DNA of 62,532 nt from a virus. Lineage: Duplodnaviria > Caudoviricetes. The position numbers and the translations under genes are program-made. The notes below the pieces were generated by a model, which worked only from the letters and a program-made list of their open reading frames with translations, did not search any database and was not told where the DNA came from. Shown in pieces: positions 293 to 62,532 of the stretch (position 1 is the first letter of the stretch; each line of letters begins with the position of its first letter). The stretch is from IMG/VR virus record IMGVR_UViG_3300048574_000038, positions 1 through 62,532 of that record. One strand, given 5' to 3'.

Positions 293-965
293 GGGAACCT
301 AGAGATTGGCACGTCCCTAGGTTCCCGTAAAGTTTTTCATTCACATTACGGCGGCTCGTCTACACGTTTCATCGCTTTACTCCGTGTTTTCTTTAAACTG
401 TGTAACAGGAAATGCAGTTCTAGGTAAGTCTACCTAGTGTGGTCGTGAACTTTACTGGACAATTCCTAGCCCACGCTGGATTCACTAAGTCCTTACTAAC
501 CCTCTTCGTTAGTGCACGAACAAGGTGTTCATCTGTGAACCTCTATTGCTTTTTCAAGCAACCACCGTTAACGCTGATTGACCCTAACTCCCACGCATGG
601 GAGAGAGGCGGCTTTGCACCGTAGCTACTTTTCGTTTTGCAAGGCATCGAAAGCTTTTTCCGCATGAGTTGTACTGTCACTACAACCGTGGTTGGACACC
701 TCTTGTATGCAGCCTTTCGGGCATTAATGGCGGGACTGTCTTGTTGCAGTCTTTAGATACGCCATGCTGTGCTGATCTGGTATATTGTTGTTACACTCAA
801 CCAGTCTCCCTGTTTTCGTGCAGATTATTTCACCACACTTATCAGCACTACAAGACAACCATTGGCAATACGATCACTACTGTACTTCGTGACGGCTTAA
901 GACGCTTGTTAGAAACATACCTCTGCCTGTAGTTGAAAGGTTCATCTGTCGAATCCCACTTTCAA
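293..965 (-). ncRNA. Candidate large structured RNA A (about 670 nt)
   Basis: No credible CDS; continuous inverted repeats (293-302/317-326, 689-694/856-861, 701-707/849-855, 727-732/760-765, 769-776/841-848); GAAA tetraloops on the - strand at 546-561 and 707-724. Confidence 0.7.
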
Positions 966-992
966 AAGGTGGGACACAAGATGTGCCCCACT
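963..992 (-). terminator. Intrinsic terminator-like hairpin
   Basis: - strand GTGGGGCACA-TCT-TGTGTCCCAC followed by CTTTT, just after the stop of 1009..1716. Confidence 0.5.
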
Positions 993-1008
993 TGTTTGAA
1001 ATTAGGTA

Positions 1009-1742: not shown

Positions 1743-3680
1743 TTAGACGCGAGCCTTGGCGGCTTCAGCGCGGCGTTCGTGACGGTTCTTGCCTTTGCCC
1801 TTGTTCTTGCCAGAAGGCTTGGAAAGGACAACAGCCTTGTTGGCAGTGGCCTTGCTGATGGCTTCGCCGAGACTGTTGCCACTGGCCGCAGGCTTGGGAG
1901 CAGGGCCAACAGGAATGGCGGTACCGTTGCTGATGGCCGTGGCCTTTCTGTCAAAAGCGTTGAGCTTCAAACTGATGGTGGCGTAGTTCGTTTCGGCCTG
2001 CTGGAGATTGAACTTGGCATCTTCGAGAGCCGCTGCGGCATAAGGAGGAAGCTCACCAAGAGCGTCCTTGATTTTTTCGTTGTCCAAGGTGGTCTTGTCC
2101 ACAAGATCCTTCGCGGAAGTGACCTGCTGTTCGGCATCAAGAACTTCACGCAGAACAGCTTCTTCTTCGGCGGTAGCCTTGGCAGCTTCCTGCTTGGCCG
2201 TGTTGAAAGCTTTCACCGCAGCTTCACGCTGCTTGCGCAGGGCATCAGCGCAGGTGCCGCACATCCACGAGTTTTCGTACTTCACGGAGTCGGCAACGCC
2301 GGGGTAGTCATTGGCCATGCCTTCGGGCAATTTGGGCGGCTTGAGTTGGGACAGTCCGTTCTTCTTAAGGCCGGTCTTGCCGCACACGAGGCAAGAGTAT
2401 TTGTTGCCATTGCCGCACATTTCGCGAGTGATGGGCAGCTTTTCACCGCCGTTGTTTTCGTTGGTGGCGGAAATGTCAATGACCTTGGAGACACCTTCAC
2501 CGCCGTGCTGTTCGTTGTACACTTCCACGGTGCGTTCCCAGCTCTTCTGGATAATATCGGAGCCTTCCAGAACGTAGGTGTTCACCGCCGGGTCAAAGAT
2601 GGATTTGACCACAGGGATGCTGATGCACGGGATGCGAGTGATCGTGCCGTCGGCGTTTTGCACGTCCTTGTAGATCATGTCCTGCATCAGGTGCGGAGGA
2701 ACGTACGTGTGGACGCACTTGGGATCGTTCATCATGGTGGTGATGCGTTCGTGAATCATGCGGCGGGTGATCTGAAGAGGTTCCTTCACCGTGCCCACTT
2801 CGTAGCCGTACTGGACACCAACATACAAGCCAAGGGCGTCGTCGGTAGTGCGGTTCTGCAAATCCCAGTTGATGATCGCCGCTTCATCAAGAGTGGTATC
2901 TTTGCACAGAACTTCCTGAGGCCGTACCTGACCTTTAACGATTTCGCCATACCGAGAGTTGGGCCAGCGAACACACAGAAGAGCTTTGCCAGATGCCGCA
3001 GTAACGGTATCGATCTTACCGTTGCGTATGTCGTTGCTGATAACCGTAACTTCGTTTTCCGGCAGGCCATTGACATCGGTGATAATCACACGGTCACGGG
3101 TGGCATCCACGTTGATGGTGAGGTCGTTGACCTTAGCCTGCTGCATGCCGGGGATGGGGGCGACGGTCTTGTCGGCAAGGTTGATAACCATAGCCACGCC
3201 TTCGCCACCGGATTGCGTGTTGTAGAATTCGTCGTCGTTACCCCAACTGCGGTTGCGGTAGCCAAAGACGGAGCTTTGCGCTGCCTTCTCGGCGTAGTGC
3301 GCCACAATGGACTGCATAATGAGGGCAGGATCGGTGATGCCCTCCATGTCGCCGCCTTCCTTGAACTTCTTTTCGATGGCGCGGTCGTGCTTGAAGGTAT
3401 CCTTCAGCAGTTCGTGAACACGGAAAGCACTGGCCTTGAGGGCATTTTCGGCGGAAACACGCTGGAGGTCTGTGAGTTCAAAAGGATTGTTGGGGGACAG
3501 AGCAAAGACACTGGCGGCAAGAGCCGTACTGGCACGTTCCAGCGCCATGAGGTCGATGTTGCTGTTGACTTTGCCGACAACGATATCGGCGAAGGTGGTC
3601 TCCATACTGGAAGCTTTGGCTTCCGCAAGAGCTTTCTTCACCAACTCGTTCTGCATAAGACCAAGAATGTCGAAATGCAT
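1743..3680 (-). CDS. Hypothetical 645-aa protein with C-terminal Zn-ribbon and coiled coil
   Basis: AGGGAG SD; CLVC and CGTC motifs, Ala/Glu/Lys-rich helix, basic tail; strong codon bias. Confidence 0.85.
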   Translation of the reverse strand: MHFDILGLMQNELVKKALAEAKASSMETTFADIVVGKVNSNIDLMALERASTALAASVFALSPNNPFELTDLQRVSAENALKASAFRVHELLKDTFKHDRAIEKKFKEGGDMEGITDPALIMQSIVAHYAEKAAQSSVFGYRNRSWGNDDEFYNTQSGGEGVAMVINLADKTVAPIPGMQQAKVNDLTINVDATRDRVIITDVNGLPENEVTVISNDIRNGKIDTVTAASGKALLCVRWPNSRYGEIVKGQVRPQEVLCKDTTLDEAAIINWDLQNRTTDDALGLYVGVQYGYEVGTVKEPLQITRRMIHERITTMMNDPKCVHTYVPPHLMQDMIYKDVQNADGTITRIPCISIPVVKSIFDPAVNTYVLEGSDIIQKSWERTVEVYNEQHGGEGVSKVIDISATNENNGGEKLPITREMCGNGNKYSCLVCGKTGLKKNGLSQLKPPKLPEGMANDYPGVADSVKYENSWMCGTCADALRKQREAAVKAFNTAKQEAAKATAEEEAVLREVLDAEQQVTSAKDLVDKTTLDNEKIKDALGELPPYAAAALEDAKFNLQQAETNYATISLKLNAFDRKATAISNGTAIPVGPAPKPAASGNSLGEAISKATANKAVVLSKPSGKNKGKGKNRHERRAEAAKARV

Positions 3681-47972: not shown

Positions 47973-47993
47973 ACCTTACCTCAGATAAAAATA

Positions 47994-48618
47994 ACACTAG
48001 CTAGAGAACAATCTGTAGCAGCAAGCCATTTCAGGCTTTCCATTACATAATCACTCCCTAGCTAGTGTCTAGACCCAAGGTGCACCCGATGTGCAATGTT
48101 ACCACCTACGTGGCTGCAACCAGTTGGTAGAGACTGGCTGGAAATTTAACACGGTACCGTTTGCGATCGTACTCGTTGGTATGCCTGTACTATTACTAAC
48201 AACGATTTAGCTAACAACAGTACTTAGTTGTTGGTATGCTTCCCAACAACACTCGGATAGTGTTATCGACGAGACACATTATTAAGGTTGTGTAACCCAA
48301 ACACAGCAGTGCGTCCCTTGCGTGGAGGGACATACACCTACACATGTACGATATGATAATCGGTTAGCTGTTGATCACCGAGGTACAAGAGCTAGCGAAC
48401 TCTCTTTTAGCAGCCGTGTACCAGTAGGCTGGTGGATCTTACGCTATATCTATGATGTATCCACTACCATCACAGTTTGAACATTGGTGCGGGGCTTCGT
48501 TACTTCCCCTATCTTCTCCGAAGAATTTCTGGAATAGCACCATCGTCCGGCTGATACATTCAAACGAAGTCCAACCCTCACAGCTTTGGTTGGTTGCACT
48601 GTAGCCTATTATCTAGGC
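47994..48618 (-). ncRNA. Candidate large structured RNA F (about 625 nt)
   Basis: No ORF of 60 aa or more within it; more than a dozen stems, e.g. ACACTAGCTAG/CTAGCTAGTGT extended by several G-U pairs on the - strand, GTTTGAA/TTCAAAC enclosing TGGTGC/GCACCA. Confidence 0.72.
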
Positions 48619-48620
48619 AG

Positions 48621-48851
48621 CTAAAACGAGAGTTGGAAGTTCTCTCGTATAAATTTGTAGGCATCCTCACCGTCCAACTCATACAACTTGGCAACGATGT
48701 CTTCCAAACTTACCATCTTTTCCAGATGAGAAGCGTTGTAGAACGCCTGTCCTACGCGTTGCCCCTCATACTTACCGTTAGCAACGTCTTGCTTAAACTG
48801 TATGTACGAAGGGCCATGCAACAGAGGTCTTTGTTCATTTTGTATAAACAC
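48621..48851 (-). CDS. Hypothetical protein
   Basis: QRVGQAFYN motif; abuts the upstream gene. Confidence 0.6.
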   Translation of the reverse strand: MFIQNEQRPLLHGPSYIQFKQDVANGKYEGQRVGQAFYNASHLEKMVSLEDIVAKLYELDGEDAYKFIRENFQLSF

Positions 48852-49268
48852 TTATGCAGCCTCTGCAAAGTCCACACCACCAGTAGTGAACGCCTGCTTG
48901 ATAGCGGCGGCCAACGTAGTGATGGTCTGGTGAGGCAGCTTGAGATCGCAGATAGAGTTGATGGCTTCAATCGTCTCGTGAACGAAGGAAGTCTCGCACA
49001 CATCTTTGTAATTCTCGTCGTGCCAGTTAGTAATCGCGTTCTCACGAACGGAGAACTTGCCAAGAACATAGGAGTTCTTTACAGGAATGGTGTTTTCACA
49101 ACCACAAGCCGGGCAAGCCTTGTCTTCACTGCCGAAAGGCACGGGAAACTCAAGGTGAGCACCGTTAAACATGCACACAGGGCATGTATGCTTCTGGTAG
49201 ATAGGCTTGTCAACAATGGACACGCCCACTTCCTGACCAAGGATTTTCATAGATTTGGGGTACTTCAT
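48852..49268 (-). CDS. Zincin-like protein with Zn-ribbon insert
   Basis: GGAGG SD; P.S.KILG, CPVC/CPAC, SFVHETIEAI. Confidence 0.7.
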   Translation of the reverse strand: MKYPKSMKILGQEVGVSIVDKPIYQKHTCPVCMFNGAHLEFPVPFGSEDKACPACGCENTIPVKNSYVLGKFSVRENAITNWHDENYKDVCETSFVHETIEAINSICDLKLPHQTITTLAAAIKQAFTTGGVDFAEAA

Positions 49269-49331
49269 AGCGCACCTCCGAAGTTAAAGATGGAGGTTGG
49301 CAATATCGCCTTACAGCACCTCGGATACCTA

Positions 49332-50282
49332 CTATTCTTCGGTCTCCGTCTCCTCTGTTTTTGGAGAGTTTTTAGCAAGCCAGTCTTTGTACTGGTTGCA
49401 AAAATTATTTACACGACAGTACTTTTCACACCGTCTGCGAGTACCAGCACGTTCTTGAATACGAACATCACCGGCAAGATTCTTAAATTTGATGTACTCT
49501 TCCGCTTCTCGTTGTGACTTACAAAGCTTCATAGCTTTAGTAGCATTAGGACGATACACAGCGTATACTGCTGGACTTTCCCAACAATACTCTCTGTCGC
49601 AGAAAGGAAGAAGATCATCTGGAATATTCTCTGCATCAACATGATTCTTCAGCAGACGAAGATACAAACCTTCACGATCCTGCATAGACCACGCTTTACA
49701 AGAAAAGGATGCACAAGGAGCTTCTGGATAATCACCCGGTTGAGCGTACTGCAAACGACTATCACGCCAGTCACAATAGATGGCATTGATCGTGCACACG
49801 TCAACGGGATAACCCTCTTTCTCAAGGAAGTAGGCATTAATCATCAACTGATGTACCCACTCGTCTTTCATTTCCTTGCCGTGCATAAAAGTTGTAATTG
49901 TTTTATGGTCGTAAAGAGTCTTAGATTCTTTATCATAAGCATCAAACTTTGCACCAACTCTACGGTAGTCTTTTTCAGTACCACCTATGGGCTTGTCAAA
50001 GCGAATAAGACGACGTTCAACAAGGTACTTATCATTGTTGTTGAGCTTCTTTTCCATGTAATCATGGACAGCATTGCCAAAGAAACTGTACCAATTGTCA
50101 AAGAAGCCACTCTGCTCGATTTCGTCTTTATGCCTACGTTCAAGTTGAACTTGTCGAGGAGACTTGCACAGTACTGTAGCGCTGTACTCAAAAGGACGAG
50201 CAAGAGTCATATCGTCACGCTTAGCGTCAATCTCGATAACGTCTCGCATAATCTGCGGAACTATATTAATATTCGGAGTCAT
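49332..50282 (-). CDS. PD-(D/E)XK nuclease, Cas4-like exonuclease
   Basis: SAT.L.KSPR, GNAVH, E.R, G.KFD, YDHK, Q...Y, C-terminal RC..YC....FC. Confidence 0.8.
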   Translation of the reverse strand: MTPNINIVPQIMRDVIEIDAKRDDMTLARPFEYSATVLCKSPRQVQLERRHKDEIEQSGFFDNWYSFFGNAVHDYMEKKLNNNDKYLVERRLIRFDKPIGGTEKDYRRVGAKFDAYDKESKTLYDHKTITTFMHGKEMKDEWVHQLMINAYFLEKEGYPVDVCTINAIYCDWRDSRLQYAQPGDYPEAPCASFSCKAWSMQDREGLYLRLLKNHVDAENIPDDLLPFCDREYCWESPAVYAVYRPNATKAMKLCKSQREAEEYIKFKNLAGDVRIQERAGTRRRCEKYCRVNNFCNQYKDWLAKNSPKTEETETEE

Positions 50283-50285
50283 TAC

Positions 50286-50945
50286 CTAATACTCAATGTC
50301 GTCAAAAATTACAGGAATACTGGCTTTAAGATCATCCAGAAGCGGACACATAAGTTCACGCATCTGCGGGTGAGCAGCTTTAGAAGTACGAAGCTTAAGG
50401 ATGTGTCGCCACTCTCGAAGATTAGCAGTCATTACAACTTCTGTTTTCAAACAAGTAGGAAGCACACAACGTGCAACTTGTGGAGAGCATCCATGAAGAA
50501 GCAACTGTTTATAACAAAGTTCAGCAGCGTTGACTGCGTTATACCAATGTTGCTTTTTTGTGTATACCTGTTCCTTCTCTGCAAAAGAAACGTCTTCGTA
50601 CTTAACAAACGGTGGCAGAAAACTAGGTTGGATAACCGTAATATTATCTTCATCTGTGCTACCGTAGTTGCAATACCGTGTACTCTCTTGCGAAAAAGAG
50701 GCAAGTCTGTGTCGTACAAGTTCGTGACTCACACCACGATCGCAGATGAATCGTACTGTAAGCATGCTGTGCTCCAGTACAGACTCGTGCCCACGACGAA
50801 CAATCTGCTCAAGAAAGTCTACAAAAGATGTATCTGTAGTTCTCTCTTCGGACTTGTAACAAACACGTCCGGCAGCCTCGATAAGTTTCATATCTTCCTT
50901 AGAAGGAAGCTTTTCAATTTTATAACTAGCGTCTATAGTATTCAT
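50286..50945 (-). CDS. thyX: FAD-dependent thymidylate synthase
   Basis: GHESVLEH, SHELVRHR..SFSQESTRY, NLREWRH...LR....AHPQMR. Confidence 0.95.
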   Translation of the reverse strand: MNTIDASYKIEKLPSKEDMKLIEAAGRVCYKSEERTTDTSFVDFLEQIVRRGHESVLEHSMLTVRFICDRGVSHELVRHRLASFSQESTRYCNYGSTDEDNITVIQPSFLPPFVKYEDVSFAEKEQVYTKKQHWYNAVNAAELCYKQLLLHGCSPQVARCVLPTCLKTEVVMTANLREWRHILKLRTSKAAHPQMRELMCPLLDDLKASIPVIFDDIEY

Positions 50946-51032
50946 ACTACCTCAATAAAAATACGGATAATGCTATGCCAAAAGGTAATGCACTATCCGT
51001 ACTAGTCAAGGTACTATAAATACCGAAATGTG

Positions 51033-51109
51033 TGGCAGCAGCGCTAGGATTCGAACCTAGGAATAACCGAGTCAAAGTCGGTTGTGTTAAACCACTTCAC
51101 CACGCTGCT
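51033..51109 (-). tRNA. tRNA-Gln(UUG)
   Basis: Acceptor AGCAGCG/CGCTGCT, anticodon arm ACCGA-CTTTGAC-TCGGT, T arm CTAGG-TTCGAAT-CCTAG, encoded CCA. Confidence 0.92.
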
Positions 51110-51111
51110 AC

Positions 51112-51510
51112 ATCTGGTAGGATAACCTGTTGTGGACTTTTGCTGGATCACACTCCTTCCAGTTATCCTACCAGTTCACCAAGCACAACGCTTGGATAAA
51201 TTCCTCCACCTAACTAGCGCCCTCACGTTACTAGTTACTAGTCAGATGGAGGCACGGCCCTTACAAGGAGGGAGAGTAAGGAGGCTTGCCGTGTAATTTG
51301 TTGGCTACCCAGACCGCCGAGACAGGGTAGCCATTCGTCCATGCGAGGGAGTAGGCACACGACGAAAATTTGTGGCACTAGCAACATGCTACGAGGCTAT
51401 CCTCCTTGTCGATTATACATGTCACTGTGCCAGTAGTTCAGTTTTAACAGCCAGTTATTATCAAACGCCGTACTGCGGTGTCCGGAACATACCGAACTAA
51501 CTGAACAATA
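51112..51510 (-). ncRNA. Candidate structured RNA G (about 400 nt) filling the tRNA-Thr/tRNA-Gln spacer
   Basis: Eight back-to-back hairpins; + strand A-C mismatches become G-U pairs on the - strand (51203-51252, 51373-51432); complementary loops. Confidence 0.8.
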
Positions 51511-51513
51511 AAA

Positions 51514-51589
51514 TGGAGCTAGCGAAGGGACTTGAACCCATAACCCCCTGATTACAAATCAGGCGCTCTGCCAATTGAGCTACGCTAGC
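51514..51589 (-). tRNA. tRNA-Thr(UGU)
   Basis: GCTAGCG/CGCTAGC acceptor, CCTGA-TTTGTAA-TCAGG anticodon arm, GTTCAAGTC T loop, CCA. Confidence 0.93.
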
Positions 51590-62262: not shown

Positions 62263-62532
62263 TCAACGGGCAAATTTTGAACGAATCCAGAAATATTGTC
62301 GGGCAAGTTTGTGAATGCACTGCCAGAAGAGGCGTTGATGCTTGTTTTTAGCACCCACGATCTTGCCATCGATACCAGCGAAGACAAAAATCTCATGCCA
62401 GTATCTTGTTTTTATATGAAAAATCAGGAGAAAAGTGAGGTTGAGGAGAAAGAGAACACCCAACACAGGGAACACAAAAGACACCGTTTGGAAAAACTCG
62501 CCGAGTAACTCGGACATAATCCAAAGCGTCAG
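62263..62532 (-). CDS. Membrane protein spanning the circular junction (true start at position 43)
   Basis: Frame continues through the 16-nt overlap to ATG at 41-43 with GGAG SD: MNNVHDTLALTLWIMSELLG... Confidence 0.75.
   Translation of the reverse strand: MTLWIMSELLGEFFQTVSFVFPVLGVLFLLNLTFLLIFHIKTRYWHEIFVFAGIDGKIVGAKNKHQRLFWQCIHKLARQYFWIRSKFAR
62517..62532. repeat. Terminal direct repeat (copy 2)
   Basis: Identical to 1-16. Confidence 0.95.

Follow-up and report, generated by a model that had tools for sequence, protein, structure and literature searches.

A candidate large structured non-coding RNA between two minus-strand genes of an uncultivated wastewater phage

The window analysed here is a complete virus record of IMG/VR (IMGVR_UViG_3300048574_000038; 62,532 bases; estimated completeness 94%), and the subject of this report is a candidate structured RNA close to its first position. 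The candidate lies in a gap of about 700 nucleotides (nt), 313-1008, flanked by two minus-strand genes: it is bounded by the stop of a gene for a protein of 235 amino acids (aa; 1009-1716, minus) and by a small membrane-like open reading frame (ORF; 40-312, minus), whose likelier start is an ATG near 276, preceded by the ribosome-binding site (RBS) GGGAGGGG. All genes neighbouring the element are on the minus strand. In a crude ORF map, the only other long gaps flagged are the tRNA island and 47973-48593. A sequence-only reading of this DNA had proposed a tertiary-structured RNA built around a multi-way junction at this place. We are confident that some functional, selectively maintained element resides here, and there is good reason to believe that it works as a folded RNA. 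The reading that we favour, tentatively and with a little less than even confidence, is that 330-960 is a discrete, large (~600-650 nt), multi-domain structured non-coding RNA (ncRNA) that is read from the minus strand and fits no known family.

The metagenome contig L002 is the sole relative compared whole, and contig pieces from wastewater runs (X1, X15, X16 and X17 below) supplement it. The features discussed in the following are these, with pairing strands separated by a colon.

330-960, probably minus strand: body of the candidate structured RNA, with approximate limits; supported by conservation, the folding z-score and the X15 contig.
769-776, minus strand: one strand of helix P_a, pairing with 841-848; four double compensatory changes.
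841-848, minus strand: partner strand of P_a, pairing with 769-776 and sharing the four double compensatory changes.
777-804, minus strand: hairpin P_b, flush on P_a, with stem 777-781:800-804 and variable loop 782-799.
805-840, minus strand: conserved strand that joins P_b to P_a in the junction, invariant at 818-840 and tolerant of small insertions at 805-817.
849-861, minus strand: junction strands of H2 (849-855:701-707) and H3 (856-861:689-694), perfect complements that pair in predicted folds.
689-707, minus strand: partner strands of H3 (689-694) and H2 (701-707), with a 6-nt bulge (695-700) between them.
727-765, minus strand: compound stem, 727-732:760-765 plus an inner hairpin.
707-724, minus strand: small hairpin with a variable tip, stem 712-714:720-722, which takes the X15 insertions.
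546-561, minus strand only: GAAA tetraloop hairpin of 6 base pairs (bp), unchanged in L002.
344-573, minus strand: left domain, with long-range helices 349-356:560-567 and 344-348:569-573.
499-531, minus strand: variable hairpin, whose base helix 499-503:522-526 is kept and whose tip is replaced in L002.
960-1001, minus strand: terminator-like hairpin after gene 1009-1716, 969-978:982-991, with outer stem 960-966:995-1001.
293-326, minus strand: stem-loop of 13 bp that forms the 3' margin of the conserved block and precedes an RBS and ATG.
527-536 and 940-949, no strand assigned: the decamer GTTCATCTGT, at chance level and excluded from the element.
960-870, minus strand: predicted small hairpins of the 5' region, from the minus-strand fold.
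687-667 and 603-588, minus strand: predicted hairpins, from the minus-strand fold.
437-420, minus strand: predicted 7-bp hairpin in the left domain, from the minus-strand fold.

The gap is much better conserved than the silent positions of the gene beside it. L002 matches 1669-273 of the window at 96.6% identity (39 mismatches in 1398). Over the non-coding 313-1008 it carries 14 substitutions in 696 nt (2.0%), half of them (7 of 14) within hairpin 499-531, so that outside this hairpin 7 substitutions are left in 663 nt (1.1%). The adjacent 235-aa gene has 23 synonymous differences at 147 synonymous sites (a proportion, pS, of 0.156) and two non-synonymous ones (pN 0.004). Comparing non-coding with synonymous divergence gives a Fisher p of 5e-10, and of 1e-12 when the variable hairpin is left out. 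The supplementary contigs agree: among the 25 pieces listed, with 94 further ones outside the counts, those of X1 hold 3 changes in 753 nt of non-coding sequence versus 55 in 1357 nt of coding sequence, and those of X15 hold 6 in 602 nt versus 77 in 1472 nt. The conservation is spread evenly over ~650 nt and is not limited to short sites, and the divergence stays low in contigs of several runs and studies although the flanking genes differ. The element was found in wastewater and aquatic runs of 11 studies. Taken together, these comparisons support strong purifying selection on the element.

Insertions and deletions within the element fall at hairpin tips, namely 499-531 in L002, 712 and 715 in X15, and the loop of P_b. 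In the variable hairpin, L002 has a 7-nt deletion (506-512) along with 8 substitutions between 505 and 531, and it keeps the base helix, in which 523 A>G turns a U.G pair into C-G; one pair of this hairpin is altered on both sides. The X15 contig has one additional nt after 712 and 14 after 715, which, judged by eye, fall within its loop and make the small hairpin 712-722 longer. No change was seen in the strand 818-840, either in L002 or in the contigs shown, and its neighbour 805-817 takes insertions, of 1 nt at 810 in L002 and as a duplication of GTTTTC after 811 in X17. In L002, unrelated sequence takes the place of the small ORF left of 273, whereas the 293-326 stem upstream of that ORF is invariant.

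The protein-coding alternative raised by the sequence-only reading was the plus-strand ORF 597-932, and it is not kept as a protein. In L002 it carries three substitutions, all non-synonymous, and then the 1-nt insertion at 810 shifts the frame. A phmmer search of this ORF against 1.84 billion representative proteins returned no protein family and only two matches, both long repetitive proteins aligned in 8-9 short stretches; none was of similar length. Nine ORFs (31-111 aa) in or overlapping the region were tested, and each one is frameshifted in L002 or has non-synonymous changes only. Alternative genetic codes were rejected, because all three stop codons are present in the region and five of the six frames contain all three. 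A non-coding region is thus supported by the sequence comparison.

What the sequence-only reading had described at the centre of the element can be read directly from the letters. The three abutting strands of 841-861 are exact reverse complements of three segments, with no spacer: 841-848 (ATCAGCAC) of 769-776 (GTGCTGAT), giving 8 perfect pairs, 849-855 (TACAAGA) of 701-707, and 856-861 (CAACCA) of 689-694. In minimum free energy (MFE) folds of 685-865, this makes a flush run of 21 (plus) or 20 (minus) contiguous Watson-Crick bases over three helices, a length that none of 300 dinucleotide shuffles attained for either strand; the largest shuffled run was 16. The compound stem at 727-765 is likewise present (727-732:760-765 and the inner 733-739:746-752), as is the stem at 293-326, of which 293-302:317-326 forms a perfect 10 bp just upstream of the RBS and ATG of the next ORF and which extends on the minus strand to 13 bp with one G.U. 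The GAAA loops that had been reported read GAAA only on the minus strand; the plus strand reads TTTC. One of the two hairpins is sound, as 546-561 is a clean 6-bp tetraloop hairpin on the minus strand; the other, 707-724, has just a 3-bp stem and folds with a 5-nt CGAAA loop.

Within the junction domain, two helices, P_a and P_b, show base-pair covariation in the aligned contigs. Covariation among homologs had been proposed as a check; it was found in these two, which were the helices testable. Divergent contigs from X1 and X16, which belong to different studies, match the window at 85% or more only over 801-841, and the loose ends flanking this match are clearly homologous yet changed. In these ends P_a goes from GTGCTGAT:ATCAGCAC to GTCTTAGT:ACTAAGAC, with 8 of 8 pairs kept, no mismatch, and double compensatory changes at four pairs (771:846, 772:845, 774:843 and 775:842). 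In P_b, the pair 781:800 changes from T-A to C-G (one double change), again with no mismatch, and the loop shrinks from 18 nt in the window to 4-6 nt in the divergent relative. P_b is predicted both by the plus-strand MFE structure and by the RNAalifold consensus of the minus strand. The double changes in these contig ends support P_a and P_b; the remaining junction helices are predicted ones. All six L002 substitutions inside predicted minus-strand pairs keep the pairing, an outcome towards which RNAalifold is biased. A long-range partner was sought for the conserved strand 805-840, and none was significant (29 of 200 shuffled cores equal the best). An 8-bp match of this strand to 513-520 is lost in L002 and was rejected.

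The RNA is probably read from the minus strand. For 313-1008, the MFE z-score is -3.9 in the minus and -1.6 in the plus orientation; for the left domain (340-580) it is -3.0 and -0.8, respectively. Both GAAA loops belong to the minus strand as well. RNAalifold on the window and L002 gives -219.1 kcal/mol for minus versus -195.9 for plus. Single-sided substitutions point the same way. Four transitions leave a G.U pair on the minus strand but an A.C mismatch on the plus strand, and they fall in helices that are Watson-Crick on both strands and hence strand-symmetric: 982 T>C in hairpin 969-991 (L002, X1 and X16); 781 T>C in P_b (L002), G.U on minus and C.A on plus; and, by eye, 761 G>A and 765 T>C in stem 727-732:760-765 of a divergent relative, which would be mismatches on plus unless compensated elsewhere. 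Three more changes, at 523, 352 and 726, make Watson-Crick pairs out of what are G.U pairs on the minus strand of the window, in helices that had been predicted on the minus strand in the first place. Of these, 352 C>T in a divergent X1 contig changes G.U to A-U in helix 349-356:560-567, an 8-bp helix whose two G.U pairs on minus are C.A on plus. The closing helices of the left domain are present in both the minus-strand MFE structure and the RNAalifold consensus. The terminator-like hairpin 969-978:982-991 has 10 bp on the minus strand, where the G.U at 974:986 would be A.C on plus; it is followed there by CUUUUG, and it is absent from a simple terminator consensus scan because the T run is short.

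Contigs from RNA-labelled wastewater libraries hold the element over 351-952 (X15) and 540-920 (X17). They are taken as presence only, because such libraries may contain DNA. The X15 contig 351-952 has a depth of 30.6 versus 2.7-6.4 for contigs of the flanking genes, which is a hint only, since contig depth cannot rank genes; in X1, a DNA-labelled run, the contig depth is flat, and the uncovered stretches in X16 and X17 are uninformative.

We propose the following organisation. A minus-strand RNA would begin just after hairpin 991-969 and end before the 13-bp stem 326-293. Its left domain would be closed by 349-356:560-567 and carry the GAAA hairpin together with the variable hairpin 531-499, and its right domain would be built on a platform of P_a stacked with P_b. 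The predicted order of the right domain after the sequence-only reading is H3 (861-856:694-689), H2 (855-849:707-701), P_a, the strand 840-805, P_b, the stem 765-727 and the hairpin 722-712. The P_a/P_b platform would hold out the invariant single strand 818-840, which may be the functional site, either making a tertiary contact or binding a partner. Here we infer the strand, the two ends, the part played by the conserved strand, and the build-up of a discrete stable RNA as opposed to a purely cis-acting one.

Several points weigh against this proposal. The main weakness is the limited sampling, which consists of one near-identical relative and contig ends. The covariation comes from loose ends of 23-30 letters of single contigs, aligned to the window by eye. 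The low divergence could in principle come from recent recombination that spread the segment among strains. The contigs carry no information on strand, ends or expression level. For the junction domain (685-865), the plus strand gives the slightly better fold (z -2.85 versus -1.69), the hairpin 969-991 could also serve a plus-strand RNA, and the sole usefully placed sigma-70-like site is on the plus strand (306-333; 9 of 12 matches), the same scan giving no minus-strand site upstream of 960. Two of the features first described are weak, namely the decamer repeat and the "GAAA hairpin" of 707-724. Moreover, the junction has a competitor. Local folds of both strands reproduce the junction of the sequence-only reading, including H2 and H3, whereas full-length minus-strand folds prefer a model in which 850-856 pairs with 761-767, extending P_a, and 858-862, 866-871 and 935-940 pair with 727-731, 721-726 and 713-718. 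A double change in X1 (852 A>G with 765 T>C) fits this extension of P_a, and 726 A>G in L002 fits the competing model too; the X15 insertion fits the small hairpin of the first model and would break 935-940:713-718 of the second. The informative changes are thus split between the two, and H2 and H3 stay predicted helices.

The same structure might instead act in cis, as a structured leader or intercistronic region of a long minus-strand transcript, the folded RNA being no free product; it would control the message between the early and replication blocks through read-through of 969-991, processing at the flanking stems, or the stability or translation of what lies downstream. We consider this unlikely on balance. 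In its favour, the element has the same orientation as its neighbours, directly follows a terminator-like hairpin, directly precedes the 13-bp stem and RBS, and has no minus-strand promoter-like site upstream of it, and the conservation and covariation evidence applies to it equally. Against it, L002 and contigs of X1 have unrelated sequence in place of the downstream gene (55-272) but retain the element, which is therefore not tied to that gene. Size speaks against it as well. The HK022 put RNA (~70 nt) and the RNase III hairpins of the T7 early region are cis-acting phage elements of single or double hairpins, tens of nt long. They resemble the present element in being structured RNA within a long phage transcript, between gene blocks and by terminator-like hairpins, but the element, with ~650 nt, at least 12 helices and a junction, is far bigger. 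It is improbable, in turn, that the region is a stand-alone plus-strand RNA gene, antisense to its neighbours, with a promoter at 306-333, a terminator made of hairpin 967-993 and TTGTTTG, and a junction formed with extra G.U-containing helices (651-679:863-907). The promoter-like TTGGCA-16-TAAAGT at 306-333, the position of the X15 contig 351-952 between this site and the hairpin, the better plus-strand fold of the junction domain, to which the plus MFE structure adds five nested helices, and a G+U-rich plus strand over 601-800 would all suit it. However, three promoter-like sites were found versus 2.0 expected, which is no enrichment; the substitutions at 982, 781 and 644 each break a predicted plus-strand pair; the terminal hairpin, 349-356:560-567 and 499-503:522-526 all show A.C mismatches on plus in place of the G.U pairs of minus; the loops would be UUUC and not GAAA; and the RNAalifold energy and the whole-region z-score favour minus.

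Explanations that dispense with RNA fare worse. A DNA-level element, such as a replication origin, a cluster of protein-binding or regulatory sites, or the boundary of a recombination hot spot, would owe its conservation to proteins that recognise the duplex or a single strand of the DNA. It would suit a region that adjoins the replication module on the circular map, has mosaic breakpoints at its left edge (273-289), and has a GC content below that of the flanking genes. Yet no iterons, tandem repeats or other repeat families were found in the region, the conservation is even over ~650 nt rather than gathered in short sites, and double compensatory changes and strand-asymmetric G.U pairs are signatures of a folded single strand; we regard this explanation as quite improbable. 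Lowest in our estimate, and very improbable, stands the view that nothing functional is here and that a decayed gene or spacer only seems conserved through recent recombination among strains, its helices having arisen by chance. Phage genomes are mosaic, a replaced segment adjoins the element in L002, single-sequence folds of random RNA look complex, and the plus z-score is just -1.6. Against this, the divergence is low in several runs and studies while flanking genes differ, the helices of more distant relatives differ in sequence but still pair, and the 21-nt flush run beats 300 of 300 shuffles, alongside a minus z-score of -3.9.

The element matches no known RNA family. At gathering thresholds, cmscan with Rfam 15 over the whole window found three tRNAs only; at E<=10 over 1-1300 it gave three chance-level matches to miRNA and CRISPR-repeat models, all at 1159-1256 and outside the element. 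The element has no Rfam match to OLE, HEARO, group I or II introns, RNase P, tmRNA, 6S or riboswitches, and ARAGORN found no tRNA or tmRNA in the region. Rfam includes a ROOL model. The sequence-only reading had placed the element in the size range of GOLLD and ROOL, and ~600-650 nt is indeed compatible with the X15 contig 351-952; a relation to either beyond size and phage origin is not supported, as no Rfam model matches even at E<=10. A blastn search with the region turned up no homolog in phages, plasmids or E. coli genomes. Exact-pattern scans (four motifs in viral contigs, one in genome contigs), scans seeded by a single neighbour protein, scans seeded by alignments of the two neighbour proteins (viral and genome contigs), and tblastn of the 645-aa neighbour against phages yielded no locus or match either. 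L002, from a metagenome scan, was the only locus recovered.

Among known large RNAs, ROOL is one of the nearest in kind. ROOL is described as encoded in prophages and phages (PMC12286853) and, like the element, is a phage-encoded ncRNA of several hundred nt and many helices whose function and protein partner are unknown. The same source states that ROOL and GOLLD, of unknown function, often lie near tRNA islands and form RNA-only cages. These cages are homo-oligomeric and held by kissing loops and A-minor contacts. ROOL, often beside tRNA islands, makes an octameric nanocage; the element lies ~11.5 kb from the three tRNAs of its phage (island 51033-51684, on the circular map). GOLLD is described there as having a universally conserved part and a less conserved part, with a conserved GAAA loop (PMC12286853), which recalls the conserved 801-841 and the varying helices beside it. 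However, GOLLD is often >800 nt and near tRNAs, whereas the element is shorter, matches no model and has a helix layout without evident relation. OLE RNA is also structured and ~600 nt long (PMC12054373), but it is chromosomal, belongs to Bacillota extremophiles and anaerobes and works in a ribonucleoprotein, whereas the element is in a phage and matches no model. In the IMG/VR phage-contig screen of Fremin, Bhatt and Kyrpides (2023), 10,006 structured-RNA candidates are given, all of 29-151 nt (PMC10690425), and a unit of this size is therefore not described there; a sub-hairpin of the element might appear in its candidate lists. A literature search for new large phage RNA classes brought up nothing closer.

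We regard the element as a promising, thinly sampled candidate for a new large phage RNA. To our knowledge, few bacterial or phage RNA classes longer than 500 nt with complex conserved structure are known, and a further unrelated one would widen the small set that includes ROOL and GOLLD. A ~650-nt element with a defined conserved strand is a compact target for probing, cryo-EM and partner pull-downs, and material and deeper alignments should be obtainable, because the element occurs in wastewater runs of 11 studies. It is a long shot that the element represents the first of a novel class of large phage RNA machines, which could be a self-assembling cage like ROOL and GOLLD or a ribozyme or decoy that uses 818-840, and which may work together with a second, still more strongly folding candidate RNA from 51110-51513.

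The phage itself belongs to a deeply novel lineage from wastewater, known as uncultivated sequence. Its family A DNA polymerase has at most 30% identity to any phage in the GenBank phage set, and no close relative of the lineage was found in the phage, viral-contig or genome collections searched. The record is labelled "linear", and the 62.5-kb genome is circular or circularly permuted, because the last 16 bases (62517-62532) are identical to the first 16 (1-16) and L002 spans both record ends. Structural genes, with a terminase match, run on the plus strand from ~12.4 to 40 kb. From ~12.35 kb, a long array of minus-strand genes extends down past position 1 into the high coordinates, where it includes a primase-like gene, a DnaB-like helicase, the family A DNA polymerase, an ATP-dependent ligase and three tRNAs. 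On this map the element separates a block of unknown early genes from the replication module (primase, helicase, PolA, ligase and tRNAs).

The decamer GTTCATCTGT, which had been pointed out as a repeat, does occur twice, but it is no meaningful feature. By our own estimate, ~0.2 decamer-repeat pairs are expected in 700 nt. With up to two mismatches the decamer has 20 matches genome-wide versus 16.9 expected, a count that 27 of 100 shuffles reach, and L002 differs in one of the two copies (531 A>G). The idea of a promoter or operator was rejected, because the motif is not enriched in the genome.

Around the element, the segment swapped in L002 and the X1 contigs lies inside the small ORF 40-312: 55-272 is unrelated, both flanks are kept, and the breakpoints fall at 273-289 and 33-54. 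On the other side, the 235-aa protein (1009-1716, minus) is all-helical and forms a conserved pair with a 645-aa protein (1743-3680, minus), in which the motifs C..C and WMCGTC are invariant and precede a long coiled coil. Neither these two nor the neighbouring ORFs match a Pfam or PHROGs family above the curated cut-off. The 645-aa protein has 19 homolog clusters (41-98% identity) and the 235-aa protein has two (one of them, P0002, at 45% identity), all metagenomic. AlphaFold models of these upstream proteins were unusable for fold searches, because their confidence (pLDDT) is just 51 and 53.

Further away, 47973-48593 is a stretch of ~620 nt without a long ORF in the crude map. The plus-strand ORFs that follow it, 48594-49517 and 49641-51005, overlap minus-strand ORFs (49332-50282 and 50286-50945) and may be spurious. 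In the tRNA island, a 404-nt spacer (51110-51513, minus) lies between tRNA-Gln (51033-51109) and tRNA-Thr (51514-51589). Its ORFs are all short (31-55 aa) and spread over several frames; it has no Rfam match even at E<=5 and no sequence in common with the 330-960 element. Its MFE is -156.8 versus -120.7 +/- 5.2 for shuffled sequences (z -6.9; 0 of 100 shuffles as stable), and its setting, structured and beside phage tRNAs, is the usual setting of ROOL and GOLLD.

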